Shown here piece by piece: positions 252 to 61,145 of a stretch of DNA of 64,000 nt. Position 1 is the stretch's first letter; each line of letters starts with the position of its first letter. This DNA is from Lingula anatina (lineage: Eukaryota > Animalia > Brachiopoda), in assembly GCA_051362555.1 (NCBI GenBank), contig CM120640.1, positions 57,700,788-57,764,787 on the forward strand, given 5' to 3'. The position numbers and the translations under genes are program-made. The notes below the pieces were generated by a model, which worked only from the letters and a program-made list of their open reading frames with translations, did not search any database and was not told where the DNA came from.

Positions 252-3200
252 TAACAATTAGCGATGACGCTATGAACTACATCGGAGACAAAGACTGGAT
301 TATTGGTAATGCTCAGATGCCTAGCTACTACCGTGTAAACTATGACATCGACAACTGGAACAATATAGTCGATCAGTTATTATCGGATCACGAGGTAAGG
401 AATATTTAAGGAATATTTCGACTTGGCGACTTTTTATAACCTAATTTCATTATTGAGTTCCGTGTATCATTTTCTGCAACATATAATCGTTGTTTTAGTA
501 ATGGGTTGTTGTCAATGCTATCACTGTACCACTATCTTATAGTCGAGCATCTTTGTAACATATATAATCGCATAGGTTGTGCTGTACTATTGATTATGAA
601 GTTTTGTCAAGGCATATTGTATATTGAAAATGTTAATATCTGCATTAATTACCAATCTGCTTCTATTAAATTTTCATAATTTTACTATTTATTCATGTTT
701 ATACTATTTTTCTCCTAGAAAATTGACCCCATTAACAGAGCACAAATCATAGACGATCTTTTCAATCTGTTGAGGTAGGTTGTGTATTACAGATTTAGCG
801 GCACAAAGGTGAATTACTGGCAAAAAAAACTCCCCAATACGCACCTTAACCTGCTTTAGATACTAAACGTTCAATTCCAATTATACCATTTTCTTTTAAA
901 TAAAACGCTGTGTTTAAAGCCGTTTTCTTAGTATTTTTATCTTTGCCCCCTCCCACTGACCAGTCTCTGTGTTTAATTTTGCTGTAGCATTGCAAACGAC
1001 GCGTTTTCATTTGCCAATTAACCCGGCGTGATGTTATCTCACTAATTCAAAGTAATGGATATCATTTGATCGATTCGTCTATAAAAAACATGTAACAAGG
1101 CCAAATATAATCATCATCACATATTTAGAAAATAATATCTAAACAGGCACATAACACATCGAGAATACGCCCTCTTCAGTGAACTGTATTATCATGTTTT
1201 GGTAATTCCAGAGCTAATGTTGCTCCAGTGGACGTCAAGTTAGTGATGCGTGGAACTAGATACCTCGGAAACGAGACCGCTTTCTTGCCCTGGGCGGTGG
1301 CACTCCGACATCTTAATAGCCTAGATTGTATGCTGAGGAAAACTGAGGGATACGGAGACTTTAAAGTAGTTTTTTTTAATTTAAATTTTTTTATTGACAA
1401 ACGACTAGCGTGACACCTTTAAAAGAGCTCAAAAACATTGTTTTATTTTGTGTCATCATTTTTCTGATTTACAAAGATTTATTCATCTGTGAACAGATAT
1501 AACTAAGGAAAAATATTCATTCGACGTGTCATCTCTCTAATGTCAATTTTTTTTCATTATCCTGCTCTAGCGTTACGTCGAGATGCTTATAGGTCCGCAG
1601 ATTGAAAGGCTTGGTTGGGAGGATGATGGAACAACTTCGAATAGGTAAGCGTGTCTCGCGTTTGTTATTCTTAGGCCGTTGTAGCTTGCTTTGAAATATT
1701 CAATTTCGCCATGAATTGTTAGAATTTATTATGCATGACAGAAATTCTAGTGAAATGTTTTGAAAAGCTGTTGTCTCTATTTGAAGTGTATAAATTGTAA
1801 ATGCATCATAAAATCATATCATTTACTTTGTTTCCAGATTGTTAAGACCACTCCTTTTGAAAGTGGCTATGAATCTGAACCACGCTCCGTCCATAGCTGA
1901 GGCACTACGTCTTTTTAATCAATGGACTCAAAAAGAAAATCCAGATACGGAAAACACGTAAGATAAAAAAACCTTCTCTCCCTTATAGTCTGGATGACTG
2001 GTGCTATATTTTGGCCAAATTGCTCAAAATGTGGAAAAAGCATGAAACTTGGCACAATTGTTCTTTGGTCTATGCTGATCATTTTCAAGGGCAGTGCCCA
2101 AAATTTCCAAGCGTTGCTTAGCAACCGTTGCTATGGAAGTGAATTTCCTTAGTAACAAGCTAAATACACCTTTCTTGTCCAGTTTAAAAAGTTTATAAAT
2201 GCTAATAACTATGTTTCAGGGCATCAGAACTATCACTAGACTATTTTAAGGCAATTAAAACCCAAATTAACCTTAGCCACGATTGCTAGGCAGCATATTA
2301 CCCTAGCAACAAGCATTTAAAGTTGCGTTAGTCTATTAAGTAAGGCAAATCTATAATACTAGCTAAGAACTACACTTCTGAGCAAGATGTTCATACTTTT
2401 AATCCAGTAAGTTGAACCAATTGTGTGTTTACACACATCCGATCAAATAAATTGCCAGTGCAGATACTTAAGGCAGCATGTTCAAAATTAGTAACCAGCC
2501 ATTTCCATGCTTTTATCACCTTATGACTCTTTATAAAACTTTGCAATAGTTAATAATAATAATAATAATAGTTAATTCTCCCTTGTATGTGCAATATACA
2601 GTGCATTTTGCCCTTGCACATTGTCAGCCTCTACATCTGCACCTACATGCACACTGGAGCAACTCTGGACAGGTCAATAGCTTTTGGCAAATGTGTCCAC
2701 TTAGGCCCACTGTTCTGCACAAGTCCAACCAGAGTGAGCACATGGTATCTGATGACATGGCACCCTAGTGCTGATTCAGATATGTTCATCTCGCAAGAAT
2801 ATTCTTATATTGATGTAGAGCAGCCTTGGTGGAAGTACGATATGGCATCTAACGGCCTTTGGGTGTGAACAGAAACTTTTGAACTTTATTGATTAACAAA
2901 TAGAATTAAAATAGAACCATGCTGAACTGACAAAATACAATGTGAAAAAACTTTTTAGAAAATATTGAACAAAATGAAAAATATCTTGGAAATCTGGTCT
3001 CTGAGAAACCTTTCAATAATAGGAAAGTCAACAGTGGTTAAACCTTTAGTATTTCTCATCTTACGTAGGGCATGTATAAACTCTCCTACCAGCCCCCCCC
3101 CCTCCCTCAATACTTAAAATATGCATATCATATTTAACTTTATCAGGAATGGAAAAAGATACAAAATAAAATGAGCAAGGATGGCATCTGATTACAAAAA

Positions 3201-7566: not shown

Positions 7567-10500
7567 AAACATCTGATCTCGGTAGAAAAATGTGCGGCGC
7601 ATATGTTGATATTCCATCTGGTTCGGGTGATTATACAGGAGGGTCCGGGTCTTATAACACAGGTGTTGTGGTAACACCCACAACACCAGCCCCTGTGGCT
7701 GTTACCACAACCACAAGGACAACATCTACTACCACCCGGCCTACCACAAGGCCTACCACTACGCCCAGGCCTACCACTAGACCTACAACTACCATTAAGC
7801 CTACCACTACCACTAAGCCTACCACTACCACCAAACCTACCACTAGACCAACTACAACGACAAAGAGGTCTACACGTGCTACAACTACAGCCGGTTCTCA
7901 AGGCACCTCCGGTATTCAGACAACACCCATTAGGGGAGACCAAGGGCAAACGGGTTTTACTGGTCCAGGCACAACTGAATTTCCTAAACCAATAATTTTA
8001 CCAGACGAACCGCAAATACAGGACGGCCAGGGAAGGGAATACATGATCATGTTCCCAGAGAATATGCTTCTTGACAATAATAATCAAAATAATCCTTCAC
8101 AAGAAATATTTGTATCAATGGTCAACAACGAATTGGATACATCTGTCATTCATATCGCCAATATGGAAGGCAATAACGTAGTAAACAATTCCATCGTTAT
8201 CAGACGAGGTGAAGTAAAGAAAATTGATATGACTGACCGCAATCTGGAAGTTATGGGGACCTCTGTAAGCAGAAAGGGTATCCAAATTACGTCTCCTGTA
8301 GATATCACAGTCATTGTGGTTAACAAGGACACGTTTACAACTGACGGTTACCTGGCGCTTCCAACAGATGCTCTAAGTACAGTATATTTCACAGCAAGCT
8401 TCCCGCCAAATCCGGAAGAACAGTCGTCTGTATCAGAGTTCGGCATTGCAGTGCCCTATAACTTTACAACAGTAACCATCAAGCTTCCAGACGTGCCTAA
8501 CTTGAATGTAACTCTTAATGATAAAGTTTACACAGGTGGCAATTTCATTCAAATTCAGCTCCATCAATTCGACACTCTCCAAGTTCAGAGTCTGTTCGAC
8601 TTGACTGGAACTTACATTTATTCAGATAAGCCTGTGGCTGTCTTCAGCGGTAATGGCCGAGCTGCCATACCTGGAGATCGCGCGTCACGTGATCACCTTG
8701 TGCAACAGTTGCCACCTGTTCAAACTTGGGGACAAGAATTTGCAACTGTCCCAGTTCCAAGACGCACTGTCGGGGATTACTTTAGATTCATTGCGAGCGA
8801 GCCAGACACGACCATTAACGTATTGAGCAGCAATGGTTCCTCCTTCCTCTATAATATTCCAAATGCTGGAGGTTCTGTCGGAGATATCCACAATTTCAAA
8901 TCCACAGACTTGTACAGAATTATGTCAAATAAACCCATCTTGGTCCTGCAGTTTGTTACAAGCCAAACAACGGCTAGTTCTCCAGAACAAGCGGACCCAT
9001 CTATGGCAATCATACCGCCGGTTACTCAGTACAGTCGAGATTATCGCTTTGCCCTGCCTAAATCAGCGAGTGCACTCACTGGAGCAGGCACCCCATATAC
9101 ACACATGGTTATGCTTATAATCAATGAGGCACTTAGAGGTGGCCTTACACTTGACGGACAACCAATTGTTCTCCCCGATGGAGAGACCTGGCGCCGCGTG
9201 CCGAATGCTCCTGCTGTGAGCCACCCATATAACAATTTGGTTGGTTCTTATATTGTTGTAACTGACGAAAACATTGTGCACAGCCTTACCCATATCAATC
9301 CAGGTGTTAACTTCATGGCTATCATGTACGGAGCAGGAGACAGAGAGTCTTATGCCACGCCAATGGGAATGAACCTAGACTTCATCAATGCCGATCTGGT
9401 AAGTTTTGCTTTAAATCCATCTAGAATGAACATTTAGTCCCTTTTTATTGTAGGTGATATCCAAAAAGAGCATTATGTCTAGAAGCAACTGTTATAATTA
9501 AAGAGAATACGATTTGTTCAAGGTCGTTGATAATTGGAAACTTGATTGTCGTCTTTTTATCATTTGGATGATTTAATTTTAGCCTCAACCGACAGATATT
9601 GAGAGAATTGACGCAGCTGGTCGAGAATATGTTATTATGTATACAGAAAACATGTTACTGGACAACTATCATCCACACAATCCCATACAAGACCTTTTCA
9701 TCGTCGCCGCAAACAATCAAGATGCTGGCGTACAGGTCTCGTACTATCTTGATAACAACCTTCAGATCCAATCATACAATTTATCAGCCAATCAGGTAAT
9801 TCAGGTTGACTTATCCGGCAAGGGTCTTGAAATGACAGGAACCACAATTCAAAGAAAAGCCATTTGTATCTCATCCACCAGTGACATTACCGTATACGGT
9901 ATGAACAAGGATACTTTCACAACCGATGGTTTTATGGCAATTCCAACAGATGCCATTGGTACTAATTACTACACAGTGAACTACCCGCCATACCCAGAAG
10001 AGACTGCATCTAAGGCTGAGGTGGGAATAGCTTCCGCCTTTGACAACACAAATATAACTATCACTCTACCAAGGCTGGATACCATACGCAGTGGGGTATA
10101 CCTGAATGGGGAGACGTATATTGGTGGAAACCGCATCAATGTCGTATTGAACAAGTACGATGCTCTTCAACTCACGAGCACTGACGACCTAACAGGAACA
10201 CACATCCAGAGCACTAAACCAGTTGCAGTATACAGTGGGAACGGAAGGACCGCTATTCCAAAGACTCGTGCCTCTCGCGATTATATAGTGGAACAACTGC
10301 CGCCGGTCTCTACATGGGGAAGAGAGTATGCAACAGTACCAATTCCTAAGCGTACCGTTGGTGATTACTTCAGATTTGTTGCCAGCGAACCCGACACAAA
10401 CATAAATGTCTATGGCAGCGATGGCTCTATATTTTCGTATAACATTAATGCGGCGGGTGGAAACGTGGATGATATTATCAATTTTAAATCAGGGGTTTAC

Positions 10501-13500
10501 TACCGAATCGCAGCTGATAAACCGATCCTCGTTGTCCAGTTTGTCACAAGCCAGTTAGAGGCTAACAGTAATGAGATGGCGGACCCTGCTATGGTATTTA
10601 TCCCTCCTGTCCCTCAATATAGTAATGATTACAGCTTCTTACTGCCAAGATCCGCAGGAGAGGGCGGGGCGGGCACTCCATTCCGACACTTCGTCATGGT
10701 GGTTGTCCACGACACACAAAAAGACGGTCTTCTTCTTGACAAACAACCTCTGCAGCTGCCACAAGGAGAAACCTGGCATGCGATACCAAATAACCCAACA
10801 ACTAACAACTCCGAGTATAATGACCTGGTGGGTGCCTTCTTCGAGGTCACGAATGTGACTGTGTCTCATATGTTTGAGCACACTGAGAGTTCGGTCAAGT
10901 TCATGGCTATAATGTATGGAGCAGGTGACCGAGAAAGTTATGCTTTGCCCATGGGTTTGAATCTGAAGGTTTTGAATGCATACGCGGTAAGTTTGTTTAA
11001 GTATCATTTGTCATCACATTGAAATTTTTATTAGAAAACAAACATTTATAAAAAAAGTGCCTAATGTTATAAAAAAAGTACATCTATGCGTTTAAAGACG
11101 CGTTGTATATTAAAATATACTAATGTCCTGGAGTAATACTGTTTGTTCAAATAAATTTACTTACTTATTACTTATTTATTTCAGGGTACGTCAAATTGAA
11201 GTTTCGCAAAATATCAGGTTTAATGAGAATATGAAGCTGAAGTGTACATGCAACTTGCAAAAACAAGTCACTAACAGTAGAATAATCCATTTGTTTACTT
11301 TTATTTCTACAAAAAATGAAAATTATAAGTATTTGGAAATATACACATGTGAGACTTTAGTAGAGACTAACAATCGTGGTATAAGTTGTCTGAGTGGCTA
11401 CCATGTTTAAACCATCGTTTGTTTTTTGGTCAATTTCTACAGCAATCTATGATTTTGTGTAATGTTGAGCGACAGAAAAGAACGGATTATCTGCACGTGA
11501 AACTGTAGTTTATAGATGAACTCCTCATAGATTCCACATGGATATTTCCCACCTTTCCTGCGTAGAAGTAGGTGGCATCGCCTCGCATGGACAATTGACT
11601 TCGGAAAACATGACATTCTGCCACTGAGCGACGTTCTTCTGCGTTTTATTTTAACCTGTTTGATTATGAAAATAACGTTTAAGCATGACTAGCATATTAT
11701 ACAATGCTATTTTATGTACAATGTAGATAACATGATAAGGGTATTAACAAACGTGTCTTCTGTTGTCATTTTCTTTTCCCCATCACTACCCAATACAAAG
11801 TTGATTTCATGTGTTCAATTGCAGTCTACAAACTAGGGTGTATCGAATTTTAGGCGCCATAAATTGGGGGAGGGATATTACATAAAACTACAGTGTAACA
11901 ACGACACCAGCACGTCAAACTTGCCTGCATGTCTACCTAACACATCTTTGGTTAGAGCGGCTTGCATGTGCATCCTATTACTAACCCAACTTATTATTAC
12001 ATTGCTAAAACAGATTGTGGTATTTTCTAGACTATGTTTGGTAAAGAAACAACGCTTGGGGTTGCTTGTGTTATAATGGTATTCGGCTCACCTGCAGTCC
12101 ACCAACGACACAAATCAAAGGGAAATATGATGATAAAATATTACTATAAAAAATGAGAATAGATGGCTTTGTGGCCAACCGTTTAAGGCACAAGTAATTA
12201 TGCATTGCTTCTGTAGTTCAATTCACATTATATATAATACAGATAATTTCCTGGCGCTTTAACCAGCGACTAACAACTTTTACTTATTTTCTTAAAATAT
12301 GCATAGTTTTAATAATTGTTTATCAATGTATGCTTTTCAATTATTCATAACATCCTTTTTAACCTTTATGCAGAAGGAAACTGGCAGGGCTCTACTTCTG
12401 GACAAGTAGGCATCACCGACCCTGACCTTTCATCCGGATCACAAACTTTCGGTCATTCGACAGAAACAATTACCACTAGTGCATCTACGACTGGGGGAAC
12501 TGCTTTACCAACTGCTTCACGAACTGTAGCATCAACTGCTTTACCTACTGTAGCGCAAACTACCACATCTACCGTAGCGCAAACTAAGGCACCTACTGTA
12601 GTGCAAACTACCACATCTACCGTAGCGCAAACTAAGGCACCTACTGTAGCGCAAACTACCGCACCTACTGTGACGCGAACCAGTACACCTACAGTAGCAC
12701 AAACTATTGCACCTACTGTCGCACAAACTGACGCACCTTCTGCTGCCCCTACTGTAGCACAAACGATTGCACCTACTGTCGCACAAACTGACGCACCTTC
12801 TGTTGCCCCTACTGTAGCACAAACGATTGCACCTACTGTCGCACAAACTGACGCACCTTCTGTTGCCCCTATTGTAGCACAAACGGTAGCACCACCTGTT
12901 GCACAAACTGACGCACCAACTATTGCTCCTACTGTAGCACAAACGGTTTCACCTACTGTTTCACAGACAAACGCGCCTACTGAAACTCAAACAGAAGCAT
13001 CTACTAAGGAACCTGTTGTATCACAAACTATTTCGCCCACTGTTAGTCCTACTGCCCCACAGACAACGGTGGAACCAGTGCAAACTACCACTGAGACACC
13101 ACAGCAACCAGTATTTCCGGGTGGAACAGGACCTAAACAGACAACAAACGTTGATGCAAAAACAACAAGTGCACCAACTGTCGCGCCTACTGTTGCACCA
13201 ACCACTGCACCTACTGTTGCTCCTACCACAAGACAGACGACAGCTGCACAAGTGCAAATCACCACTGAAACTCCACAACAACCAGTATTTCCTGGCGGAA
13301 CGGGCCCTGGACAAACAACAAGGCTACAAGAAAAGACAACAGGTGCACCAACTGCGGCGCCTTCTACCCAAACAACTGCCCCACCTGCTACAAGTAAAAC
13401 AACTACAGAAACTCTGTTTCAACCAACAACATCCACTGTAGAAACAGCGACTGTACTTAATACAGCCTCTACCGAAACTTCTACAGTGCCTACGGTGCCA

Positions 13501-21106: not shown

Positions 21107-21179
<73 letters not shown>

Positions 21180-33100: not shown

Positions 33101-36100
33101 ATTGTTGTCATGTCCTGGCGGTGCTCTTCTGGTAGTGTATCATACCAATCAAGGGCGGCCCCACGCAACAGTAGAGGAAATGCCGAACGTTGTTGTTCGT
33201 CTGACAACCCTCTGTATGCTGCGTAATTTTTAAAATGGGCTAGCCAACGATTGTAATCTTCGTGAGTTGAGCCTGTGAATTTCTCAGGCATCAAATGCAA
33301 ATCGGCCGGCATATTATCAGCGTGGGCAGGCGGTAGGGGGTGTGGGGGAATTGGTGAGTTTCTGGCGGAATCGGCGGGCGTGGAGCTCTCAGTGTCGGAA
33401 ACGCTGCTCTCTAAAGGCTGAATAACAGTGGGGTCGGTGATATCGTTGAGTTGCGATAATGCTGGTGAAGCGGAGCGGGAAGAAGTCGGTGAGGTGTGTG
33501 CCGACGGAGGAGACGTTGGCTCTTTAACGGGAATCGACGTACGTGACTCACCTGCCTTTTTGTGCCTGGTATTTGCTGACGGCGTTGACCAATAGTTTTC
33601 TGGCCTGGAAAACATGCGGGGACGTTGCTGTTGGCTCAGCTGCGGGAGAAGGAATCAACCGTGTTCTCCACCACCTTGTAACCCGGATGGTTACTTAATT
33701 CTGAGCGGGTAGCAAACTTGAAAACACCGAAGACATCAATGGTAGCTCATGAAGATCTTTATTTTCTGACGGGCTACAATCTGGCACGCAGGCAGGGACA
33801 GTCACGACGATCTCCCGGGGTCTCCCTCTCACTAACTGAGAAGCCCTCATTTTATAGGGAATCGTTCTAAGTCCTGCGTGCCCAATAACTATTACTAAAT
33901 GTGTGTAATTTATAGGAATAATAAAGGAACTAAAGGTAACATACGTGATTAATAGGAAGTATGAGAAAACTAAATACAGGGACTATATTACATTCCATAG
34001 TAGCCCTGAACACGGATATGTTCTCCGGGTAGGAAGGTTACATAACGCTCGGACCTGGGAATGGCCTCAACTGGAATTTCCCCAGGTGTAGTGACTGTTT
34101 TTGGTGGAAGAGATCAAAAGAGCGAAATGACTATAATGAGGCCAAAGTATTTCTACAATTCTAGAGTCGGCACCGGGTTTCCATTTTCTGTCATCTGAAA
34201 GGGGTGTATCTTCAATTACTTAAATAAATTACTCTACTGAGATTTTTGTTTCTAATTTTGGTTTCTCTTCCGTGATTGAAAATGTGATTTAAAGGCAGAG
34301 ACAAATTGTATAACACTACCGTGTTATAACATTAAGTGTGAGATAATACACTGTCACCCGAGCGATATATGCCATAACACCTCGAGCGTTAGCGAGAGGT
34401 GTTCATGGCATATATCGCGAGAGGGTGACAGTGTATTTATTTGACATACATACCGAGAAAAAAATACAGTCATTTCATCCTAAAACACCCCTAAAACCGA
34501 ATAAAGTGACCCTATATCACGCTCTAGAGATGTTATATGAAATAAACCCGTCCACGTGCGCTGGTCACCTCCCGCCAAATTCTTACGTAATGTCTGACCA
34601 ATTAGGTCAATTTTTGCTAAATACTTGTCCAGCTACGTGTGGCTCAGCTGAGACGCGCATGGTCAGTGTAGACGATTTATTGATTAAATACTTTTCACGC
34701 CAGTTGAACGTCTGTTAAGATACTTCATGGTATATTACCACTTCATGGGATAAATGCTCTGATTTTACTGTCAAATCGACTTCATAGGATAAAATGCGAC
34801 TTCATCTCCACATAAGATATTGCCTGCGACTTCATGGGATAATGGTGAAAAAGTACCTGTTGTTGGCCCAACGCTATGAGAGAGAACGTTTTTGAAATTA
34901 TTAATATAATGTTTTTGTACTGTAAATATTATCCAAAATAGGTAAACTGTACGTTTTAATTTACTTGTATGACTGAATAGGGTTTCTTTAGTGGTATTGG
35001 ATGCATGTTTTGAGTAATTTTAAAATACACAGGCGTATGTAGGTGAGGATCCAGTATTTCTAAAAATCAGTACATTATGGGAGATAATGGTCAACGTTGA
35101 AGAAAAGGGGGTCCAGACCCCCTGGGCCCTCCCTTCCCAGATCCGCTTGATGCATAAAACTAATGGATCAGGTAAACCAGGCTATGAAAACATAAGTTAG
35201 GCGTAGGTTACTGGATTATAAGATGGATAAATAAACAAATAGGAAGCAATTATTAAAGATAAATAAATAGATAATAAAAAGAAGCAGAGAAGGTCGTGTA
35301 TATAATTGTGCTCTACAATTATCTTGATCAAGTCGCGTCCCACTCTGAAAAGACTAATTTTTGCATGAGGAAAGACGCGCAAGTGTAATTATTTACGTCT
35401 GTCCCTTGGTTTCCGAGATGCACTGTTCTGGTCCTACACCTGTGAATGTCCATCATGATGTGATCAATGGTGTCCCTGAAATGTGCCCTTGGCTGGCTCT
35501 CATTTGACCCGAAAGTATTATCTGCGGCACAGTCTGCATTTGGAAACCTGTTAATAAGGCGTTCGTCCGGGGGGGGGGGGGGAAGGGGGGAGGCCTACTT
35601 GTTGTTTAGCAGCCTAATTAACGTAGTTGATCTGCGAGATCAACAGCCTTGTAGATTGATATTTATTCAGAATTGTGGTTGATTGTAATTGTTGTTGATT
35701 GTAATTTTTACATCGTAATTTCTGCTATCTACCCGTAGACCTTTAGTAGTGGGACTTGGGGGGGGGGGTATATATTTTTTATATCGTTGTTACTGGTATC
35801 CTCTATCCATTAAAGTGAGGAACATGAGACGTTGGGGATATTTAAACTTGACATTAGGGATGTGCACGTGTCCTTCGGATTTTTGGTGACTTTGGTGACC
35901 TAGGGGTGGTTGATTATTATCTTTAAATTGTATTTTCTGCTATATACCCATAGGTCTTTAGGTTGAGGAAACTAAAATGTCGGGGTGTGCATAGGCAGTT
36001 TTTTTTTTTTTTTTTTTTTTTTTTTGTGACCTGGGGTGTGGCTGTCCCTGGGGATGGTACACATATATATTACCGTAATTTATTTCATCTCCCCCTAGAC

Positions 36101-38318
36101 CATTCGAATTAGGAACATGAGTCTTTGGTGCATGGGTGGGCTACATTAGTGTGACTTGGGGTGTGGCCGTCCCTAGGGGGTGGAGTGATTAGTGGTTTGT
36201 CAGGCAATGAAGCTGATTCCATAGATTGCACTTAAGATTCCTTGCAGAGTTGGACCGACCCAGCTAGTACTACATCCTATGTGTGAATCTGAGGGCGGTC
36301 TTCGAGTTAGGAAGGAAGGGGAAATGTAGAGAAAGCAACAGACAGTACTAAATAACAGACCTTCAGTCGTATTCTTGAATATAGGTCAAGTTAATTAAAA
36401 CCCATTCAAGACCCCATACTCTCAGGAATCCCAGGGTCCAAGTCCCATTGTTCTTTAACATAAAACACACATGTTAATTACTGCTCTTGGGAAATAAACA
36501 TTTTAGTTTTGTGTTAAGACACAACAGCAGTTAAACGCTAGGATTCCTGATCGAGTGTGTGGGGCCTTGTATTAGTTTTTAATTGGATTTCCTGACCTAT
36601 ATTTATGCATATGGCTGGAAGTCCATTTAGTTCTGTATGTGCTTCTCCTGTTCTCTACATTGCTCAAGGACCCATGCACATTCATTAAAATGACAGGTTC
36701 ATTATGTTCCTTAAAATTTAAGGGTATAGATGGCAGAAAAAAGTTGTGAAAAATATAATCAACCACCCCCCGGGATAGCCACACCTGAAATATCATACTA
36801 ACATTCCCGGAAACCTATGCATATCCTCAATGGTAAGCTTATCAGCCCGGAAGGTTTCATGTTCCCAACTGTATTGGCGTAAGGGTAGAAGCACGAATAA
36901 CGATGTAAAATTTAAAATCAACCTCCACAGGGACGGCCACACTCAATGTCACAAAAACCCAGAAGGACCCATACACATCCCCAAAGACAGATTTTTCAAT
37001 CCCCATAGCCTTACGTTCCCAGTTTTATTGGTCTAAGGATAGATATAGCAGGAATAATAATGGAAATTAGACTAAACCGCCCCCAGGACCCCCCCCCCAA
37101 AAAAAAAAAAAAAATCCGAAGTGCCCTTTCACATTCAAAATAGAATGTAGCCACGTTTCATGCTCCTAGCATAAAATACTATGTAAAAATTAGAATAGAC
37201 AACCCCCAGGGTCGACCACGCCCCAAGTCACAATTGAATTCCGAAGAGCCTTTGCAAATCCCTATAATGATAGGTTTATTAATCATCATTACTATGATGG
37301 TTTAGGAAATAACAATGTGAAATAGATCATGTATATAATAAATTGTCCACCACAGGGAAAGCTTGACCAATGTAAGCGTACCTAGCCGAGACAACCCCGT
37401 CCCCATTCCAATTCTACCTCTATAGAACTTCTCACTAGCTATTTATTGACTAAGAAAAAATTTTGGTTGCAAAATGCGTTCCGGTTGAAAAATTCGTTTT
37501 CACGATTTTCTTTGGTTGCAAAATGCCTTGCAGTTGCAAAATGCGGCTCTACACCAGTTTTATGAATCCCCAGCATTTCATTCTCCCCAACATCTATCTG
37601 GACAGTTGACCGTTTCAAATCATTCAGATTTCAGACTTTCCGACCTAAGCGTTTTCATTAAGTATATAGGCCAGGAGGTCAATCTTTTAAAACGACCGAG
37701 ATATTTTCGAAACATATTTGTTGCATATCAATAGAAAAGCCTATTTTTACAGCTTGTTATTGCAAGTCATAACATTTATGTCATAGTTACAAAAGAGATA
37801 CTTCTATAACACGAATAATGGAATAGACGGTTTGTTAAAGATATTAATGTACACCTAGTGTGGAGCAAAATTAAAACCTCTCTGCCTAGTAGAGTTCTCT
37901 ACCTACAGTGGAAAGACATACATTCTTGCTACTGTGTACTAGCCACATCTATAAACCTGCGCCGTCAATCAAACCACACATGGTCAGTTTTATGCCCTAG
38001 TTTAAAGGCAGGCAATGTGTTTATTTATACACTTCGTTTGTCTTATACATCTAGTGCCTCAGACCCGCCATGATTCAACGTCCAAATATTGTCAGTTTTT
38101 AAACGTCCTGAAATCTTAAAAATTTCAAAACTAAATGGGTAAAACAAAAAACTAGCTTTATGCTTTCCGCCACTGGACCGGAGCTCTTGAAAGAAAGTAC
38201 ATTATTTATAGAAGTTAATCTCACGGGTATCTACGAGAACATATGAAAATAACAGCTTCATTAAACTCCAACGAGATAAAATACGCACTATCATGTGAGG
38301 GAGTAATGTTACTCCCCC

Positions 38319-38349
<31 letters not shown>

Positions 38350-41300
38350 CATTTCGAATACACGCATCAGAATGAAACATCATATCGACCTTTACGCCTA
38401 ATTTCCACATCCAACCAGAACTGAAACATGTTTGGATACAATGTACCATGAAGTGGTAATATACTACGAAGTCTCCTAAGGGTCCTTATTTTTTAACCAA
38501 TGAAGTCGCCTTCTATCATGAAGTAGTAATTCTTATCCTATGAAGTGGTAATATACCACGAAGTATCTTAACAGACGTTCAACTGGCGTGAAAAGTATTT
38601 AATCAATAAATCGTCTACACTGACCATGCGCGTCTCAGCTGAGCCACACGTAGCTGGACCTGCTGCAGAAAAAAGGTCCCAAGGCAAAACCTCTACTTTG
38701 AAGTGACATTTCTGATAAACAAGGAGCGTCGGACCGGAATATAGTCAAACTAATTTTTTACAAGTGCAAAGGAGAAAGATATTTATTTTTTGGTGATATT
38801 TCTGACAACGAGGCAGTTTCGGAATATAGTTAAAATCAAACGAATGTTTATTTCAAGATCCCGGGAGTAATAATGCTACGTTTTGGTGACATTTTTTACT
38901 ACGAGGCGGTTTCGGAATATACGTGTGCTGGTTTCAGAGCATGGAGCATACTACATGTAATTACAAGTTCAAAGGGGGAAAATATTTGATTTTTACCGAT
39001 ATATCTGATAAAGAGGAAGAATGAACAGTTTAAAAACAAAAGGTAAATAACACAACCCTCGTTAAAAAGTTATAGATTTACAAGTAATTTGTACGCACGT
39101 GTGGCTTAAATGTAAACTAAATCCCGTTTTCAAACCATATCCATATGATAATGTAATAAAATTATAAAAAATAATTGTTAAACGTGAAATGTTTATGCTA
39201 ATTTTTTAAGAGTGTGAGAGATTTAAAATTTGTCTACTGGTAGGTATATAACGCAAGCAACGTCACTATTCTCGTGATGCCAAGGTCGTCTCATGATCAA
39301 TCTGTCTTTGACTTCCAGCATTTAAGAGACCTAGACTGATTTAACCAAGATGTAGTCGTGAAATTTTAGACTACATCGAGGTTAAATCCGAGTATTCCGA
39401 GAGACGCTACGCAGAAATGTCGAGTGAAGCGAGATATTTTTGGGTAGCGGCTCGAGGTTGCCCTCGATCTTCACTGAAGCTTGCCTAAATGGACAGGCTT
39501 CAGTGATCATCATATCGCCACGGTCACATAACATCCCTAGGTATGTATGTAGATTTAAACCCCGTACAAATTTTGATATTAACTTATCTTTTCAGCGTTT
39601 CTTCGATAATCATTCCTATGGAACTGCCCAGCCAAATGCCCTTTGGGAGGCAATTACCGAGGTATGACGGACAATTTATTTTTTTATTTGGAACAAGTTT
39701 AGTGAAGATACGTAGAATAGAAATGTTTAACAAAATTATGGCATAATGGTGTTTGAAGAAAAAGTTGAAAGTTATCGAACACCTCATAGCTACAGAAAAT
39801 ATTAACGGAGGTAAACATCTTGAAACACCGATTCCAAATACACCAATATCGTTCCATCTAACATTATTTTTATAATTTGATTTTTCTTCTTCAGCAAATC
39901 CGGTCTGAGGGCAAACACTTAAACGCAACACTGATTTTAACACCTTGGACGGCACAGATTGGGTACCCAGTAGTAACTGTGAATTTGGCACGGGATTCAA
40001 CCATTACAGTCACTTCATCCTCTTCTGCGGAGTCTAGCCCCGGTTTGCCCGGTCCACCTATTGGGAATGCTACTCAAGTGCATTTTGTGACAAATCCAGA
40101 CTCCGAATATGGAATGGCTGCAAAGTAGGTGTAGAACATACTTTGTTTTATTTAAAAAGGAAAACGATCATTTAACTAGTCTGATTCGTGGAAGAATGTG
40201 TTACAGTGGTATCATTTTTGTTGAGTAACAGAAAACAAAACAAAAATTGCGTGTATCAATTAATGCAAATGTCTATTATACACGTGTGAACGAAAAATGT
40301 CTCTCATATTTTTCATAATCTGTTTTAGTCCATGCAATTGCACCTTACTTCTTTTGATCGAGTGAAAAATGTGAATAACTGTACTTAGTATTTATTGTTA
40401 TTATCATTATAATTATAATAATTAATAATAATTTCTTCTTACAGCCAAGTGTGGTACATTCCCTTTACTATCACAACTTCTTCAAACCTTACCTGGGACA
40501 ACAGTGCACCGATCGTCTGGATGAACCTTAAAAACAGTAAGCGTTGGATAGAAAAACAGTGTAGATATGGGGGTACTTTCATACCTTGACTAGATTTTAA
40601 AAAGAAGGAAATATATTGCACATATATTTTAAACAATAAGAATCAATTTAAGTCTAAGTTATTGCTTAAAACTATTTTTCAGCTGCCATAACATCTTCAG
40701 CTGTGGGCACCTTGGAGAAAGGGGGCTGGGTGATTGGAAATACAGCAATGGCCGGGTTCTACCGCGTCAACTACGATTTGGAGAACTGGAATAATATCCT
40801 AAATCAACTCTTGAGTGATTATACTGTATGTTTGAATGATTTGGATAATATGAGGCCATATTAATTTAGCTTAATTTAACTTAGCATTTGAATATAAACT
40901 AATACTGCTCTTACATAGGCCTATTCCTCTTTATGATTATAGAACATTAATTGTATGTCAGCTTAATTTACTGGGTTACAAACACATTTTAAAGTTCCAT
41001 TTTACGGTTTTAAAAGTACATTTAAACTAGTAATTTGCAAAATGAAGTGTTCGTAACCAAACATACATTGTTTGTGTAACTCGATATACTCGTACCTGTA
41101 GTATAAAACGTACAAGTATTACCGAATAAGATTTAATAAGGAACAGTTAGAAATCACTTCTTATCCCTGCCATCGAACGGTTCTCTTCTTTTTTCTTTAG
41201 AAAATTCACACCATTAATAGGGGACAAGTGATGGACGACCTTTTCAATTTGTTAAGGTAGTGAATAGTTTTGTCCTTTTGGTTTACCGTGGATATTAAAA

Positions 41301-44288
41301 GAACGACAAATTAAAGTTCAAATTCGTTAATCATCAAGAAAACACATCATTTAAGGAAAATGGCGTAAATTCCAATAATATAGCTGTTTAAAATATGTAA
41401 AATAGATACAGCTCCATGAAGTAGTTGATTTGAACATTGGCCTCCTTTGGAAATAATGCGTTTCTCTGTTGCGTATCAATTAAGGAAACCATTTTAACAG
41501 TCATTGTAACATATTTCTCTGGTTTTATTGTTAGAGGAGATATCCGCCCAGTAAATATCGCCCTGGCCATGACATCAACGACATATCTCTCCAGTGAAAC
41601 AGACTACATGCCACTCTCAGTGGGCATTCGTCATCTGGAGTACATTTCTTATATGCTGGCAAGAAGTGAATTCTTCGGGATATATAGGGTTGGTCGCTTA
41701 AAATTATTGTAATAAGAACTAAATATTTTGTTTTCTGAAAAATCTTAGACGTTGTTTGGCTTTGAAAAAATGTTATTCTTATGATACATGGGTTTACTTA
41801 AGGGAAATTTTCCCAGAAATGTTTAGCGCAGATATAAATATACAATAATTATGTTGCTTTAATTTGTAGGAATATATTATTAAACTACTCACGCCTGTTT
41901 ATAACCGTATGGGTTGGACAGATACAGGAAAACAGATGGAAAGGTATAAGTTGCTATGTATTGTGTACATGATATTCAGAACTGGTTATGAAATTTAAAA
42001 AAATCATTTATAAATCAGTAATCAGTCGTCGCCAGTCTGTAACATGAAACTGGTATGTTTAAAAGGCCGTCATATTTTATCGCATGTTTTATATTTCATT
42101 TTTATTATATAGATTTGTTTTATTTTAATAAAATTTGTTTTGATATTTCATATTCAACTTGCAGATTCACGCGTATTAAGGTGCTTACGTTCATGTGTAG
42201 TCTTAACTACCGCCCATGTGTACTGAAAGGACTGGAGCTGTTTGACCAGTGGAAGGCTTCTCCAACCCCAGATCAAGTTAACCCGTAAGTCCACCTAACG
42301 TTAAAGCAATAATAACTCTTCGTTTCGGCCAAAAAATGAATTTTCCTGGAGTAAACAACAATTTTCCCATACTTACCAATGGTTAATGAATCCATTTTTA
42401 CATTCAAAGTTAGTCCCTGGTTTTTTTCTAAAAAGTTTGGTTTTTTGTTAAAATCTCTTAAGAGATTTTAACAGAGTATAGACATCAATGGAGGTCACGT
42501 GGTCTAAAGACAAGTTCAGATATCAGAATAAAAGCTATAACTGCTGTTTTTTGGTAAAACAGAATATATTATATTTCTATGAGTTATTCACAAGGTTTTT
42601 ACTGTGAAATATAGATATCATACGAAGAGTTATTATCCCTTTAATATACAGTAAATTACACCAATAGAGTAGATAGCTTTATCTCCTCCCTTGATTAAAA
42701 GACAATTATGTCATATGCAAGACAGATTTTTAAATTTCATTCGGTTTCGGTGTCACATTTTTGAGGAACAAAAAGATGTTCACATATATTAACCCATCTA
42801 GATATCAAGTGTGCGCGACTATATCTGTAAAGGGTTATAGGGAATGGGTAAATGTGAAAGAGTGATTATGCTCTGAAAATCACGCTGTTCGTAGTTATAC
42901 ATTAATTCTATTCATACAGTTTGTAGGATTCCATACATTACGACAAACACTGCATTGATCATTGTAAATATTACCTTGTCTCTTTTTAGGATCCCCGACA
43001 ACCTACGCGAGCCAGTTTACATGGCTGCTATCAAGTACGGCCCAGACTCCAACTGGGATTTCCTGTACGCAAGAAGCAGGCAGTCCAGAGTTGCCTCAGA
43101 CAGACAGAGGATGCTGCGGGCGTGTGCAAACACCAGGACACCTTGGCTAGTCAACAGGTGCGAGTTTTCTGTAGAGAAGACATTAATTCCACATTGCCTT
43201 GAAACTCAAGGAGAAACTCTGATGGCAGAAAAAAAACATTTTCGTAGTCTACATACACTGTTACATCAGCCGATAACATATTGGTTCCATGTGATTAATG
43301 ATGTAAGTTTTCCAATAAGATATGCTTACTTTCAGGTTGTTGAGATATACCTTGGACCAGACTCAGGTCCGCTATGAGGATGCGCCCACTGTGATGGCTG
43401 CGTGTGGTTTCACACCGGCCGGCAGAACCCTGGCATGGGACTGGCTGAGAGCTAACTGGCAGGCTGTTTATGACAGGTAAGCTGACCAATCTCACTTGTG
43501 TGTATAAAATCTGGGCAATTTTGTCTACAAATCATCAACTTCATCAGTTACTTTCCTGTGATAAACCTTTTTAGTAAAACCATTAGATCCACCTAAAACA
43601 TCTATTGTTGAAAGACTTCAGGATCTGCCAAGGTGTGGGAGATGAAGCGATACATATACCATTTAATCAGTTATTGCAATCCTTTATAATTTCCTTCGAT
43701 TTTCTAGGTTTGGTCAGTTATCCTACTATATGTCAGATATCATCGATAAAGTCACGATGCGATTCAATTCCCAATTTGAACTGTCGTCAGTAAGTAAACG
43801 TTTTTTTTCTTCACATTTTATTTACAGACATGATTTATTTTAAATGCCCTAAATTTTGAATAATTAAGTAATATGGAAAAATGTGTATGTCTGTCTACTG
43901 TCGACATAGAGATTTAAGCACTTAAGACTGAGTTTAAATCTTTGTGCGTGAATTGCACTCATTTTTGCTAGGGAGTACTACATGTACAACAGGTATTGGT
44001 GTGGAAGGTCTCTCAACGGTTAACTGTTTTTTTTTTCAGTTGATCGACTGGATTAATCGTCAAGAGCATTTAGGTACGGGCACACGTGCGTTTGAGCGCG
44101 CAGTGGAGAAAACACGGGCCAACATCCGATGGTTGGAAAATAACGAAGCACCCCTCGGAGAGTGGCTTAATGTTGAGAGGACGAGGCCAACTAGAGACGG
44201 GTCACCAACTAGAGACGGGTCATTGGATTCTGGGGATCACACTGGCCACGAGAACCAAACCTTTGTTGATCCATTTGCGTCAAGTTGA
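252..44288 (+). CDS. Giant multi-exon gene (5'-truncated by window): [M1 aminopeptidase C-terminal domain]-[Thr-rich linker]-[IgGFc-binding domain x2]-[mucin-like PTA region]-[inactive aminopeptidase-N module]-[inactive aminopeptidase-N module]
   Basis: 49 GT-AG exons read by eye with compatible phases, plus one inferred micro-exon. Summed length is 11,663 nt (2 nt + 3,887 codons including the TGA ending at 44288). Two module junctions lie inside single exons (7431-9398, 23014-23612). The only unresolved junction is 10986 to 12374. Confidence 0.8.
1986..3964. mobile_element. Non-autonomous DNA transposon with about 330-bp imperfect TIRs (TAGTC...GACTA) and a 3-bp TTA TSD; Academ-like by its termini
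   Basis: tagtctggatgactggtgc at 1986 is the near reverse complement of gcaccagtcatctagacta ending at 3964. Similarity extends about 330 bp. TTA occurs at 1983-1985 and 3965-3967. Superfamily assignment is inference. Confidence 0.8.
3170..3635 (+). mobile_element. Degenerate LINE (L1/Tx1-like ORF2 C-terminal) fragment inside the TIR element
   Basis: Broken frames give [27 protein letters not shown] and NFL, resembling the post-RT region of L1/Tx1 ORF2. Confidence 0.5.
5089..5765 (-). mobile_element. Degenerate RTE-like LINE fragment
   Basis: Minus strand reads [15 protein letters not shown] (RT GVRQG-LSP motif) near 5670-5720 and [20 protein letters not shown] (RTE-type C-terminal motif) near 5120-5180. 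Many disruptions. Confidence 0.65.
5852..6709. mobile_element. MITE/foldback-like element with long TIRs built from (atgaaaatctgactccc) subrepeats
   Basis: Left ccggtgtaacatgaaaatctgactc versus right gagtcagattttcatggtacgcctg. Inverted similarity continues for more than 150 bp. Confidence 0.8.
7431..9398 (+). CDS. Large exon: end of M1 module 1, Thr/Pro/Arg-rich linker and IgGFc-binding (FCGBP N-terminal-like) domain 1
   Basis: Within ORF 7494-9437. Acceptor ttctag|7431, donor 9398|gtaagt. Motifs [62 protein letters not shown] and [14 protein letters not shown] are characteristic of the IgGFc_binding domain. Confidence 0.88.
7670..7890 (+). repeat. Coding Thr-rich repeat ([10 protein letters not shown] units)
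   Basis: Repeated cctaccact units encode [16 protein letters not shown]...[12 protein letters not shown]. Confidence 0.85.
9583..10986 (+). CDS. Single-exon IgGFc-binding domain 2 (paralogue of domain 1)
   Basis: Phase-0/phase-0 exon of 1,404 nt, in frame with ORF 9637-11022. Same motif series: [69 protein letters not shown]. Confidence 0.88.
12031..12040 (+). CDS. Candidate 10-nt micro-exon (ACTATGTTTG) bridging the phase-0 donor at 10986 to the phase-1 acceptor at 12374
   Basis: Sequence reads tattttctag|ACTATGTTTG|gtaaag and restores the frame. Inference only. Confidence 0.35.
12374..14534 (+). CDS. Large exon: mucin-like Thr/Pro/Ala/Val-rich region (about 580 aa) followed by the N-terminal domain of M1 module 2
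   Basis: ORF 12316-14538 with APTVAQT repeats. From about 14155, [17 protein letters not shown]...FFGRVEI...IILHMVDL...RGLF is the M1 N-terminal domain. Donor 14534|gtgagt. Confidence 0.88.
12545..12965 (+). repeat. Coding tandem repeats: 24-nt APTVAQT units and a 60-nt higher-order unit ([20 protein letters not shown])
   Basis: The 60-nt blocks starting at 12721, 12781, 12841 and 12901 are near-identical. Confidence 0.9.
14155..23150 (+). CDS. Module 2: complete aminopeptidase-N-like unit, predicted catalytically dead
   Basis: Exons 14695-14850 ([13 protein letters not shown]), 15175-15292, 15562-15682, 15953-16104, 16270-16383, 16560-16700, 16922-16987, 17158-17226, 17510-17697, 17955-18043, 18320-18462, 18737-18792, 20465-20618, 20954-21027, 21572-21685, 21913-22080, 22268-22408, 22684-22765 and 23014 onward. 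The HEXXH position reads REITD and NEGFA reads NDGFS. Confidence 0.9.
18563..18649. mobile_element. Tiny MITE/hairpin
   Basis: Inverted pair ggctccgtatctcgaaa / tttcgagatacggggcc. Confidence 0.55.
18894..19992. mobile_element. Non-autonomous element with CCCAG...CTGGG termini, 2-bp AA TSD and subterminal tandem repeats (animal EnSpm/CACTA-like); contains a nested TIR insert at about 19362-19750
   Basis: Ends read aa|cccagcgggca ... tgcccactggg|aa. About 60-bp repeats (caatgttgatagatcaacagg...) span 18950-19290 and caacgttg palindromes lie at the right end. Nested ends are gtatgca...gtaattac and gtaattac...tgcatac. Confidence 0.8.
21110..21212. repeat. Compound microsatellite (TG)n(AG)n
   Basis: Read directly from the sequence. 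Confidence 0.95.
21253..21353. mobile_element. Small MITE/hairpin
   Basis: cgttgcggtctcaacct ... aggttgagaccgcaacg form a perfect 17-bp inverted pair. Confidence 0.55.
23233..44288 (+). CDS. Module 3: complete aminopeptidase-N-like unit, predicted catalytically dead; C-terminus of the protein
   Basis: Exons ending 23612, then 23810-23965 ([13 protein letters not shown]), 24186-24306, 24473-24593, 24877-25031, 25340-25453, 25686-25820, 26080-26145, 39596-39661, 39895-40124, 40445-40536, 40683-40825, 41201-41256, 41535-41688, 41870-41943, 42165-42284, 42990-43157, 43336-43476, 43708-43789 and 44040-44288. The HEXXH position reads NKITL and NEGFA reads NAAIA. Confidence 0.9.
26331..26982 (-). 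repeat. 3' LTR (652 bp)
   Basis: Direct repeat of 33677-34328, preceded in element sense by purine-rich GGACGGAAGG (putative PPT). Confidence 0.95.
27512..27851 (-). pseudogene. Frameshifted, truncated env-like third-ORF remnant of the Gypsy element
   Basis: Two overlapping ORFs (27654-27851, 27512-27733) join, on removal of 4 nt, into a signal-like [16 protein letters not shown] followed by [33 protein letters not shown]. The position is between pol and the 3' LTR. Confidence 0.55.
28384..32361 (-). CDS. pol: Retrotransposon Pol: protease, RT, RNase H, integrase, chromodomain; in frame with gag behind a single TGA
   Basis: LVDTGAS (protease), YIDD (RT), TDAS (RNase H), H..H..CEPC plus D-D-E (integrase), GPY, and chromodomain WFDVEKLL...[12 protein letters not shown]. 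The frame is open from 32361 to the ORF-track start at 32259 (34 codons). Confidence 0.96.
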   Translation of the reverse strand, partial: RLKARKNEKAVGTLSNSVKQNSIFISTRNCRIDTLVDTGASVSCISKDVLHKIGISLSQLAPPSHLKTIIGVGGVSQNILGVLRLQFYIGKAKFTHNFQVIPKLTRPAILGLDFLHNHGATLNLSTQELILRNPDITVPFTVSDQLGLARNTSTVTIAPHTEQLVRVHVSRVHLKPQVSTLVLLEPTNIVSTLLGASSVNALSTRYCFYRMANVTPNTITIRRNTILAKASRIDSSMVNQIDFTSSPAPPIPPPSPQNKQAALSLGIPFDLTHLSPNQQNQLLCLIGSNKDIFASDLSEIGHVPLYKHTIETDGHPPIAQRFYRASPQAKAEIDRQIDKMLRHDIIEPSTSPWSSPVVLVKKKQGDFRFAIDYRKLNAVTKTISFPLPRLEDIFDSVADSKATYFSLMDINTAFWTVGLSDDSKEKSAFVTHSGQYQFKRMAFGLKNAPSSYQYLLSNLFRHLNWKSVIIYIDDILSYSKTFEEHLLHLQEVFHILRQANLKLKPSKCTFAMPKVLYLGHYVSKQGIEVDPSKTEAVKTFPQPKNVKQVRSFLGLCNWYRRFIKGFSTIAKPLNALLQKDVKFQWSEECETAFTTLKHRLINPPILKFPDMSKPFILTTDASGHALGYILGQLDDSGRETVICYGGRSLTPAERLYPITQLECLAVLEGVRTYQTYLLNQPFVIYTDHQALKWLKQVKHTTPRLIRWALALQEYDYTIHHRPGDKNPADALSRRDYDAPVPKVTNDDTPLLGKAKDENEAPVRTIVEQPPIPSSPVHILTEIISETQPDVFSAISHSDEDSLSQLALAQRQCADCQHIISYLETDTLPSDPKLARKTVYESDQYIMDGDLLFHIYQPRSKNASLADKKIIRQLAVPTPYRDDVLHAYHDSLAAGAHFAFDRSYELIRHRFYWPRMYSEIMQYVKTCEPCQKAKRHHGQRPAPLQPLPIVGVWDRLHMDILGPLPKSKEGYKYILLVVCSFSAWPEAFPLRTQTAEEIAHVLYSEIFCRFGAPRVIVSDRGRNFTSLLIQTLSDLFHVKRSLTSAYHPASNAVVERNNQSIAQSLRIYCNEAQDNWPSILPGVMMALRATPATESTEFSPFHLMFGREMNTPLESILKPPDHLPSSVEDYIDNIQRNLETARKIAHDNRLRAQGKYTRNFDRTANPPPFHIGDRVLLKWSRVKPGKSPKLTSKFVGPYYITDRVSSYTFLLRDCKNNKAHPSPIHANRLKLYKDPQDRPLRPQQPLPIPNQADPAPAPPADEPPPVPDEWFDVEKLLKCKNIRGVKHYLVKWKGYTPTWEPHFNVAHSLIREFHIHKTLSGKSRKR
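32362..33615 (-). CDS. gag: Retrotransposon Gag (417 aa)
   Basis: PEKFTGS...WLAHF...[11 protein letters not shown] capsid-like region, [14 protein letters not shown] major-homology-like region and Zn knuckle [14 protein letters not shown]. Confidence 0.93.
   Translation of the reverse strand: MFSRPENYWSTPSANTRHKKAGESRTSIPVKEPTSPPSAHTSPTSSRSASPALSQLNDITDPTVIQPLESSVSDTESSTPADSARNSPIPPHPLPPAHADNMPADLHLMPEKFTGSTHEDYNRWLAHFKNYAAYRGLSDEQQRSAFPLLLRGAALDWYDTLPEEHRQDMTTIELAFTRRFRPTESAKWVAVSNLFHKTQSPSQPVQDYIAEMRREAARVQLPEEQAIQAILHGLLPEVRPFVAQHEPHTFEELIARARQAETAIQPSSSPSATLTALSTQLSEIKEKISQLSTSPPTPATVNPVQPTATYPQNPNFQRQPPSSNFQNAYPEYIPHGQFQQPRRYNNGPPPPRFQGRSGGRQLGRSGNRQFAMNQETPRCNGCGMSHLRKFCPASHSTCRNCGRIGHLARVCRSGRRQ
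33659..33673 (-). promoter_or_regulatory. Primer binding site, tRNA-Ala-like
   Basis: TGGTGGAGAACACGG lies 3 nt inside the 5' LTR and is complementary to a ...TTCTCCACCA tRNA 3' end, as in tRNA-Ala. The isoacceptor is inferred. Confidence 0.7.
33677..34328 (-). repeat. 5' LTR (652 bp)
   Basis: Direct repeat of 26331-26982. Element-sense ends are TATAAC...GTTACA. Contains TATAAAA and AATAAA on the minus strand. Confidence 0.95.
34627..38659. mobile_element. About 4-kb non-coding TIR element with about 125-bp near-perfect TIRs
   Basis: gtccagctacgtgtggctcagctgagacgcgcatggtcagtgtagacg... from 34627 is the reverse complement of ...cgtctacactgaccatgcgcgtctcagctgagccacacgtagctggac ending at 38659. 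Subterminal cttcat/atgaag repeats. No TSD or transposase found. Confidence 0.82.
38700..39020. repeat. Degenerate tandem repeat (about 4 copies of gtgacatttctga...cggaatata)
   Basis: Units recur near 38703, 38793, 38885 and 38997. Confidence 0.6.
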
Positions 44289-47033: not shown

Positions 47034-47131
47034 TTGAGAGAGATATTGTGTATATACATCAATACTTTAAATGGCCCACACAGGGTCATAGCTTTAGAAA
47101 AAAACTACATAAATAAAGATGCCCATCAGAT
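47034..47131. repeat. Inverted copy of intronic segment 49451-49548
   Basis: ttgagagagatattgtg...gcccatcagat is the near-perfect reverse complement of atctgatgggc...cacaatatctctctcaa. Confidence 0.9.
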
Positions 47132-47465
47132 CTTTTCTTTCTTGTGAAGATGAGCACTAAAGACCACTTCTTGTTACAAAGATGTCATGGGGACCCCATC
47201 CTGTAAGGCAGATTTTCAAGAAGGATAAAAACTGGAACAATGTGGTAGGTAAGCTTAAAATATCTTCATGCACATATATCTTCTTTTTCACAGCTGTACA
47301 TGCCTATTTGCATTGTACTGACATACACCAGTCTACTTATCTCTAAAAGCTATCCTCATTACAAAATGTTTACCTCTGAATGATTTTGTAAAATACATTA
47401 ATTTTTAAATCCAAGATAAAATTATGTATGTGTGCATGTGCATGAGTGTTCTATTAAACATTGAT

Positions 47466-48624: not shown

Positions 48625-48665
<41 letters not shown>

Positions 48666-61114: not shown

Positions 61115-61145
<31 letters not shown>

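Follow-up and report, generated by a model that had tools for sequence, protein, structure and literature searches.

We found that three modules of the M1 aminopeptidase family, two IgGFc-binding domains and two Thr-rich tracts follow one another on the plus strand of a single locus in Lingula anatina. With about even confidence, we read this locus as encoding one very large extracellular glycoprotein, a non-enzymatic scaffold of mucus or matrix that may be secreted or tethered. The extracellular fate, the location in mucus and the function as a scaffold are suggested by the types of domain present. The window that was analysed is a 64,000-nt stretch of contig CM120640.1 (assembly GCA_051362555.1, 57,700,788 to 57,764,787), and all coordinates given here are positions in that window. 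It is AT-rich (37% GC) and its introns are short.

The gene model consists of 49 exons (10 + 39) in two blocks, A and B, as seen in Table 1. Their 1,434 and 2,448 aa come to 3,882 aa, which agrees with the roughly 3,890 codons that the first-pass annotation had estimated. GT-AG borders were found in 47/47 internal introns, and there is no internal stop in the 3,882 codons. Pfam searches of plus strand ORFs placed IgGFc_binding in 7431-9434 and 9583-11019, Peptidase_M1_N in 12316-14535 and 23014-23613, and Peptidase_M1 in 16180-16500; another four ORFs matched ERAP1_C. Together with the exon model, these matches confirm the colinear order of modules, domains and tracts from 252 to 44288 that had been proposed. 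All plus strand ORFs were also compared with one another, and the boundaries were then read from the pairs; the homologous exons of all three M1 modules are equal or nearly equal in size. Three fusions between parts had been claimed to lie within exons, and each was found there. Exon 7431-9398 runs from the C-terminal helix of module 1 through Thr tract 1 into IgGFc domain 1, exon 12374-14534 carries Thr tract 2 into module 2, and exon 23014-23612 carries module 2 into module 3. Since each fusion is inside a single exon, all three are independent of splicing predictions.

Table 1. Coordinates of the features of the locus and of its surroundings in the 64,000-nt window.
Feature	Position	Strand	Details
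Block A	252-10986	+	10 exons, 1,434 aa; C-terminal half of module 1, Thr tract 1, two IgGFc-binding domains
M1/APN-like module 1, C-terminal half only	252..7568	+	8 exons and the start of exon 7431-9398
Thr/Pro-rich tract 1	7626..7991	+	~122 aa; T 40%, P 13%, no Cys
IgGFc-binding (FCGBP_N) domain 1	8022..9398	+	PF17517, E 2.8e-55; exon in common with the end of module 1
IgGFc-binding domain 2	9583..10986	+	PF17517, E 3.9e-64
Strong splice acceptor (predicted)	11185..11199	+	Acceptor 12.1; donor 5.5 (GTACGT) one base later
Weaker bridge candidate	11531-11567	+	From a splice-site scan of the gap
Alternative bridging micro-exon candidate	12031..12040	+	10 nt, phase 0 to 1; acceptor 5.5, donor 1.8 (weak)
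Block B	12374-44288	+	39 exons, 2,448 aa; 585-aa Thr tract, M1 modules 2 and 3
Thr/Ala/Pro-rich mucin-like tract 2	12374..14130	+	~585 aa, no Cys
M1/APN-like module 2, complete	14152..23157	+	~890 aa; Pfam Peptidase_M1_N, Peptidase_M1, ERAP1_C; catalytic motifs lost
M1/APN-like module 3, complete	23230..44177	+	~905 aa; catalytic motifs lost
C-terminal tail and stop	44178..44288	+	36 aa, hydrophilic, Cys-free; exon model
Ty3/gypsy LTR retrotransposon	26331-34328	-	In intron 26146-39595
~4 kb element	34627-38659		In intron 26146-39595; 127-nt terminal inverted repeats, 98% complementary
Inverted-repeat and minisatellite elements (intronic)	2017-3943, 5880-6633, 18560-20290, 47034-49548		
Three coding-looking ORFs	47495-49465	-	Charged sequence, no Pfam match
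Exons of a myosin motor-domain gene	59126-61432	-	Converging on this locus

Block B closes with a short tail, and an AATAAA lies at 44342, 54 nt past its stop. No transmembrane or GPI-type hydrophobic end was found at its C terminus. The part of the protein inside the window has no hydrophobic anchor, with no 19-aa stretch above a KD value of 1.31, and the modelled protein has no signal peptide in the window; its 5' end lies upstream of the window. The 3,882-aa model contains 26 N-glycosylation sequons.

Modules 2 and 3 are separated by a linker of ~25 aa, and their exons align to solved chains of APN, ERAP1/2 and IRAP. Pfam recognised Peptidase_M1_N and ERAP1_C in module 3, while its catalytic domain was identified by alignment to PDB chains and by 35% identity to module 2. 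Neither HExxH nor GxMEN is present anywhere in the 3,882-aa model. The HEXXH-(18)-E zinc motif has become REITD...ND in module 2 and NKITL...NA in module 3. When aligned to solved chains, module 2 shows VVREI at the position of IAHEL in IRAP and WFNDG at that of WLNEG in ERAP2, and module 3 shows WVNAA at that of WLNEG in porcine APN. The Tyr of SYxKG is catalytic in M1 aminopeptidases and is lost in both modules: module 2 has TTDK at this position, and module 3 has TITLDK aligned with DVSYDK of ERAP1. The exon covering the GXMEN region of module 3 matched no M1 chain in PDB and was placed through its alignment to module 2; it appears to have drifted beyond recognition by these chains.

Protein identity among the three modules is about 35-40%. 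Nucleotide identity between them is 0.48-0.52 at the first codon position, 0.61-0.65 at the second and 0.34-0.36 at the third, and since third positions are this dissimilar while the protein is conserved, the silent sites are saturated under long selection on the protein. Because GXMEN, HEXXH-18-E and the Tyr are absent and the codon patterns are those of selection, the sequence identifies modules 2 and 3 as presumptive pseudo-peptidases, long selected as protein and not decaying. Both modules have the derived residues ASP, xIT and TxDK at the lost motifs, suggesting that catalytic activity may have been lost ahead of the module duplications. The first-pass annotation had proposed a scaffold built from peptidase folds, and it is directly supported by conserved modules that no longer have the zinc ligands, GXMEN or the Tyr; a single fusion protein would depend on an additional micro-exon at the A-B join.

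The two IgGFc-binding domains are 54% identical to each other. Their name is misleading because human FCGBP_N did not bind IgG, according to the available part of PMC8267560. AlphaFold predicted domain 2 to be all-beta with several beta-sandwich subdomains (pLDDT 93.5). Searches by sequence revealed no solved relative of the IgGFc domain, and Foldseek with the whole predicted domain gave TM values of 0.17 at most. The first subdomain (9610-9957) matched Thermotoga TM1070/ASRT in Foldseek with E 1.6e-5, TM 0.60-0.63 and an rmsd of about 5 at 10-11% identity, and in VIA with Z 7.8 and an rmsd of 4.1 over 106 aligned residues (next row Z 4.5). In its predicted model, this subdomain has a clear resemblance to the fold of TM1070 and the transducer of sensory rhodopsin from Anabaena (ASRT), a structural link that may be unreported for the domain at the N terminus of human FCGBP. 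Sugar binding has been proposed for the TM1070/ASRT superfamily (PMC2739507, available part). As a lead, sugars would then be the predicted ligand class of FCGBP_N through its TM1070/ASRT-like fold.

Thr tract 2 (T 28%, P 12% and S 9% over 585 aa) has imperfect repeats, whose periods range from 12 to 72 nt. At 13030-13700, three copies of FPGGTGP break up the Thr-rich sequence; these are possible turn, cleavage or binding sites.

Next is the join between blocks A and B. The first-pass annotation had treated both blocks as one protein; a continuous reading frame does not hold for a direct splice. The donor of IgGFc domain 2 at 10986 (score 11.2) is in phase 0 and the acceptor of the mucin exon at 12374 (score 5.6) is in phase 1, so splicing one to the other is out of frame and reaches a stop after 11 codons. 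Joining the blocks requires an additional micro-exon. Because the 47 junctions of the model itself served to train the splice matrices, scores of the real sites are in-sample; 10986, 11185 and 12374 were outside the training set. The acceptor at 11185 is the best in the gap. Its score is reached by only 6 of the 47 modelled acceptors, and no decoy of 12 or more was found in 17,547 nt of intron (transposon intron excluded). Reading on from 11185 gives a last exon that ends GTSN-stop. If the RNA is instead cut after the single G at 11185, this G and the AA of the acceptor would make a Glu and bring all of block B into frame by way of a predicted 1-nt exon. A donor of at least 5.5 one base past an acceptor-like site was present at just 3/488 sites on both strands, 11185 included, and at 0/47 modelled acceptors.

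Two other candidate bridges are listed in Table 1, and several more were rejected. The in-frame phase-0 acceptors near 12374 score only -4.4 (12388) and -4.2, exon 11185-11348 and other bridges ending in T form a TAA at the join, and exon 12267-12327 forms a TAA as well and also leaves a 46-nt intron. Exons of 1 nt are very rare, and the available text of a plant survey describes two clusters of them (PMC8831610). In the accessible parts of these reports, the single-base exon of plant APC11 (PMC4674806) and that of VPS55 (PMC8831610) are spliceosomal, restore the frame and have intron-retention isoforms, which is the same logic as at 11185; they are validated and conserved, whereas the 11185 exon is a prediction in an animal gene. 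Weighing the very low prior for a 1-nt exon against the coincidences in the gap, we consider some joined A-B mRNA to be slightly the better bet, and the 1-nt route at 11185 to be a tentative proposal for how the join is made.

The leading alternative, to which we give a sizeable minority share of the probability, is that A and B are two neighbouring genes of one tandem family. Gene A would comprise the M1 module or modules, a Thr tract and the two IgGFc domains, ending GTSN-stop; gene B would comprise the mucin tract and two dead M1 modules behind a first exon of its own, and each would still be an unusual fusion. The phase mismatch fits this explanation, as does the strong acceptor at 11185 with its natural-looking short tail and in-frame stop, and the rarity of 1-nt exons in the available part of the plant survey (PMC8831610) favours it too. 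Block B has no Met before residue 561, which favours the join. The first exon of gene B would be either unseen or the signal-peptide-like exon at 5570-5654. This exon has a good phase-1 donor (one of three such among 39 candidates) and could start block B separately, but it would need to skip three exons of block A. Against two genes, the gap leaves just 1.2 kb for a 3' UTR, a promoter and a first exon. It holds no canonical poly(A) signal (0 AATAAA/ATTAAA vs 3.6 expected, P about 0.03), and of the 10 ATG exons listed there, not one has both a hydrophobic stretch and a good phase-1 donor; candidates ending in T make TAA with the AA of the acceptor.

RNA reads were taken from eight of nine runs of the same species, with 6-30% of each run read and with X8 and region 26300-44288 excluded. 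In run X1, the module 2 junction 21685>21913 (GT..AG) was covered by six reads with four different starts, spliced exactly as modelled and in the orientation that sense RNA would have in a stranded library. In these samples the locus shows low-level expression and splicing. The modelled junctions observed were 1/24 in the first stretch and 0/28 in the second, so the junction mapping that had been called for upheld splicing in module 2 but gave no read across the A-B join. Read depth was 0.47 in bin 10135-10781 of X2 and 0.88 in bin 10782-11428 of X6, and no reads fell on 11429-14016 in the eight runs at the 6-30% sampled. This handful of reads at or before the join, with none on the mucin tract, slightly favours a transcript ending near 11185 and thus two genes, but is too small to settle the choice.

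Most mapped reads came from intronic repeats; the elements at 5880-6633 and 18560-20290 attracted the most, from copies elsewhere in the genome. The reads on Thr tract 1 were assigned to another transcript, as they have loose ends at 7801-7833 in X1, X2 and X3. These loose ends indicate that a second mucin-like gene exists in L. anatina; this other expressed gene has a Thr/Arg/Pro repeat with 33 nt in common with Thr tract 1.

Intron 26146-39595 of module 3 contains two transposons. In the Ty3/gypsy element, the LTRs (26331-26982 and 33677-34328) are identical, the target duplication is ACAT, gag (32365-33654) and pol (28387-32361) are both open with one in-frame TGA between them, and there is a C-terminal chromodomain. 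Its insertion is very recent. It is a chromodomain Ty3 element in an invertebrate, for which read-through of the stop is possible. No long ORF was seen in the second, ~4 kb element (34627-38659). Past block B, the ORFs at 47495-49465 could be the tail of the myosin gene; otherwise they belong to a different gene.

Modules 2 and 3 share the series Peptidase_M1_N, Peptidase_M1 and ERAP1_C with APN/ERAP/IRAP-type M1 enzymes. However, each of the solved chains is one unit of about 780-980 aa that carries zinc motifs, whereas the modules here are in tandem and lack the catalytic motifs. As all three motifs are absent, modules 2 and 3 would fall outside the active M1 family. The midgut APNs of insects also place an M1 fold beside an O-glycosylated Thr-rich stalk, and in this they resemble the locus, where an M1 fold is next to a Thr tract; they differ in being single active enzymes that have a GPI anchor and lack FCGBP_N. 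Neprilysin-like M13 proteins of Drosophila are reportedly extracellular metallopeptidase homologues without catalytic activity, and are thus inactive extracellular peptidase relatives as here, but of a different family. Gel-forming and membrane mucins have long Cys-free Thr/Ser/Pro tracts between globular modules, as does this locus. They also have VWD, CK, SEA or a transmembrane segment, none of which was found in the window, though an N-terminal anchor may lie upstream of it, and the C-terminal cystine knot of gel-forming mucins contrasts with the Cys-free 36-aa tail. Because cysteines are few, any polymer would be non-covalent.

As in FCGBP, full PF17517 domains are present, here two of them. 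The VWD-C8-TIL units of FCGBP were not found in the 10 plus strand ORFs scanned. VWD had been reported absent, and this was borne out: Pfam matched no VWD family in those ORFs, and all 49 exons of the model are assigned to other domains. With no VWD, the locus would be neither an FCGBP nor a gel-forming mucin, and its product probably functions in the manner of a modular protein of mucus or matrix. According to the available part of PMC4948705, invertebrate FCGBP_N proteins have varied architectures, mostly with an N-terminal FCGBP_N and without VWD, commonly with tandem copies and varied partner domains; they are linked to mucus and often have signal peptides. FCGBP_N is usually N-terminal but is internal here, with M1 folds as its partners. 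The available part of the main text mentions no peptidase partner of FCGBP_N, and two of the three supplements contain no Peptidase_M1, ERAP1_C or aminopeptidase (PMC4948705).

The IgGFc relatives that could be named belong to bivalves, a brachiopod and a lancelet and are 32-41% identical. A profile search with the IgGFc domain gave no match above 43% identity in the best 150 of 1.84 billion representatives, bar one short match of 45%, and hence no close orthologue that would show conservation. Among 220 IgGFc relatives retrieved, none had an M1-like match (0/220). Twenty-one long relatives were scanned, and they carry TSP1, VWD, EGF, CUB, ZP, lectin, Sushi or bacterial Ig domains and no M1 domain. 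Word-based searches with M1 pieces (targets of 1,296-3,700 and 351-2,000 aa) gave no match, but they missed even ordinary APNs and are therefore uninformative on tandem or dead M1 proteins elsewhere. In the ESM Atlas, only generic Peptidase_M1_N clusters (0.83-0.84) were returned. Database entries with several APN modules exist for some invertebrates, so that a tandem arrangement of M1 may not in itself be novel. No description of an architecture with M1 and IgGFc_binding was found in the accessible part of the published literature, which is consistent with the first-pass annotation's failure to recognise it among characterised proteins. The fusion of M1 to FCGBP_N and the chain of dead M1 modules are apparently undescribed.

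In the scaffold that we propose, the protein would be directed out of the cell by either a signal peptide or a type II anchor, encoded upstream of the window. The Thr tracts would be O-glycosylated and form extended spacers, and the FCGBP_N pair would bind glycans or other components of mucus. The dead M1 folds could serve as bulky spacers or as cross-linking beads through non-covalent pairing; alternatively, they could hold peptides in a cavity that no longer cuts. A micro-exon would connect blocks A and B, the simplest candidate being the single G at 11185, and read-through at this site would give a short form ending GTSN-stop. In its fullest form, which we put forward as unproven and somewhat doubtful, the proposal is one chain with a length of ~4,400 aa or more (3,883 from the window and the rest from the other half of module 1), a new mucus or matrix polymer of dead M1 folds and sugar-binding FCGBP_N, with the 1-nt exon at 11185 switching between the giant and the short form.

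Another explanation, with perhaps a one-in-four standing, is that the protein is a tethered enzyme in which module 1 or a module further upstream is active while the remainder serves as a stalk to retain it in mucus of the gut or surface, made by one gene or two. Only the C-terminal ~357 aa of module 1 are inside the window. Its N-terminal half and active site lie upstream and may be intact, and its ERAP1_C match (E 1.9e-15 on 4349-4591) indicates an APN/ERAP-type C-terminal domain. However, module 1 is as near to the dead modules (36-40%; about 35-40% for modules 2 and 3 taken together) as those are to each other, and the derived residues common to modules 2 and 3 suggest a loss of activity that preceded the duplications.

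It is rather unlikely, though not negligible, that the locus instead encodes a surface or secreted binding protein for adhesion, recognition of gametes or microbes, or use as a peptide or toxin decoy, with the dead cavities as its working parts. APN ectodomains are receptors for viruses and toxins independently of catalysis, which agrees with such a role, as do the adhesive TSP1, VWD, lectin and ZP domains of FCGBP_N relatives. Very low expression in the eight runs would fit a restricted tissue or stage. On the other hand, the cavity residues of modules 2 and 3 differ, so no single ligand is evidently conserved, and the window holds no anchor. The enzyme and binding-protein explanations are both compatible with one gene.

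A decaying pseudogene cluster or an assembly artefact is very improbable: the lost catalytic motifs, the frame problem at one join, the two transposons in one intron and the near absence of RNA could be taken for either, but they are countered by 47/47 canonical introns, 3,882 codons without a stop, saturated silent sites with a conserved protein, a junction (21685>21913) spliced exactly as modelled, three fusions inside single exons, and modules too diverged to be collapsed repeats.

If the scaffold reading is true, a complete enzyme of ~900 aa and four domains has repeatedly been co-opted as a non-catalytic unit from which an extracellular glycoprotein is built, and this would be an unusual route to a component of mucus or matrix. 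The locus would also be a natural test of the role of the M1 fold without catalysis. The link between FCGBP_N and the ASRT/TM1070 fold points to sugars as a testable class of ligand for a mucus domain of poorly understood function. If the 1-nt exon is real, it would be a splicing curiosity that is invisible to gene predictors.
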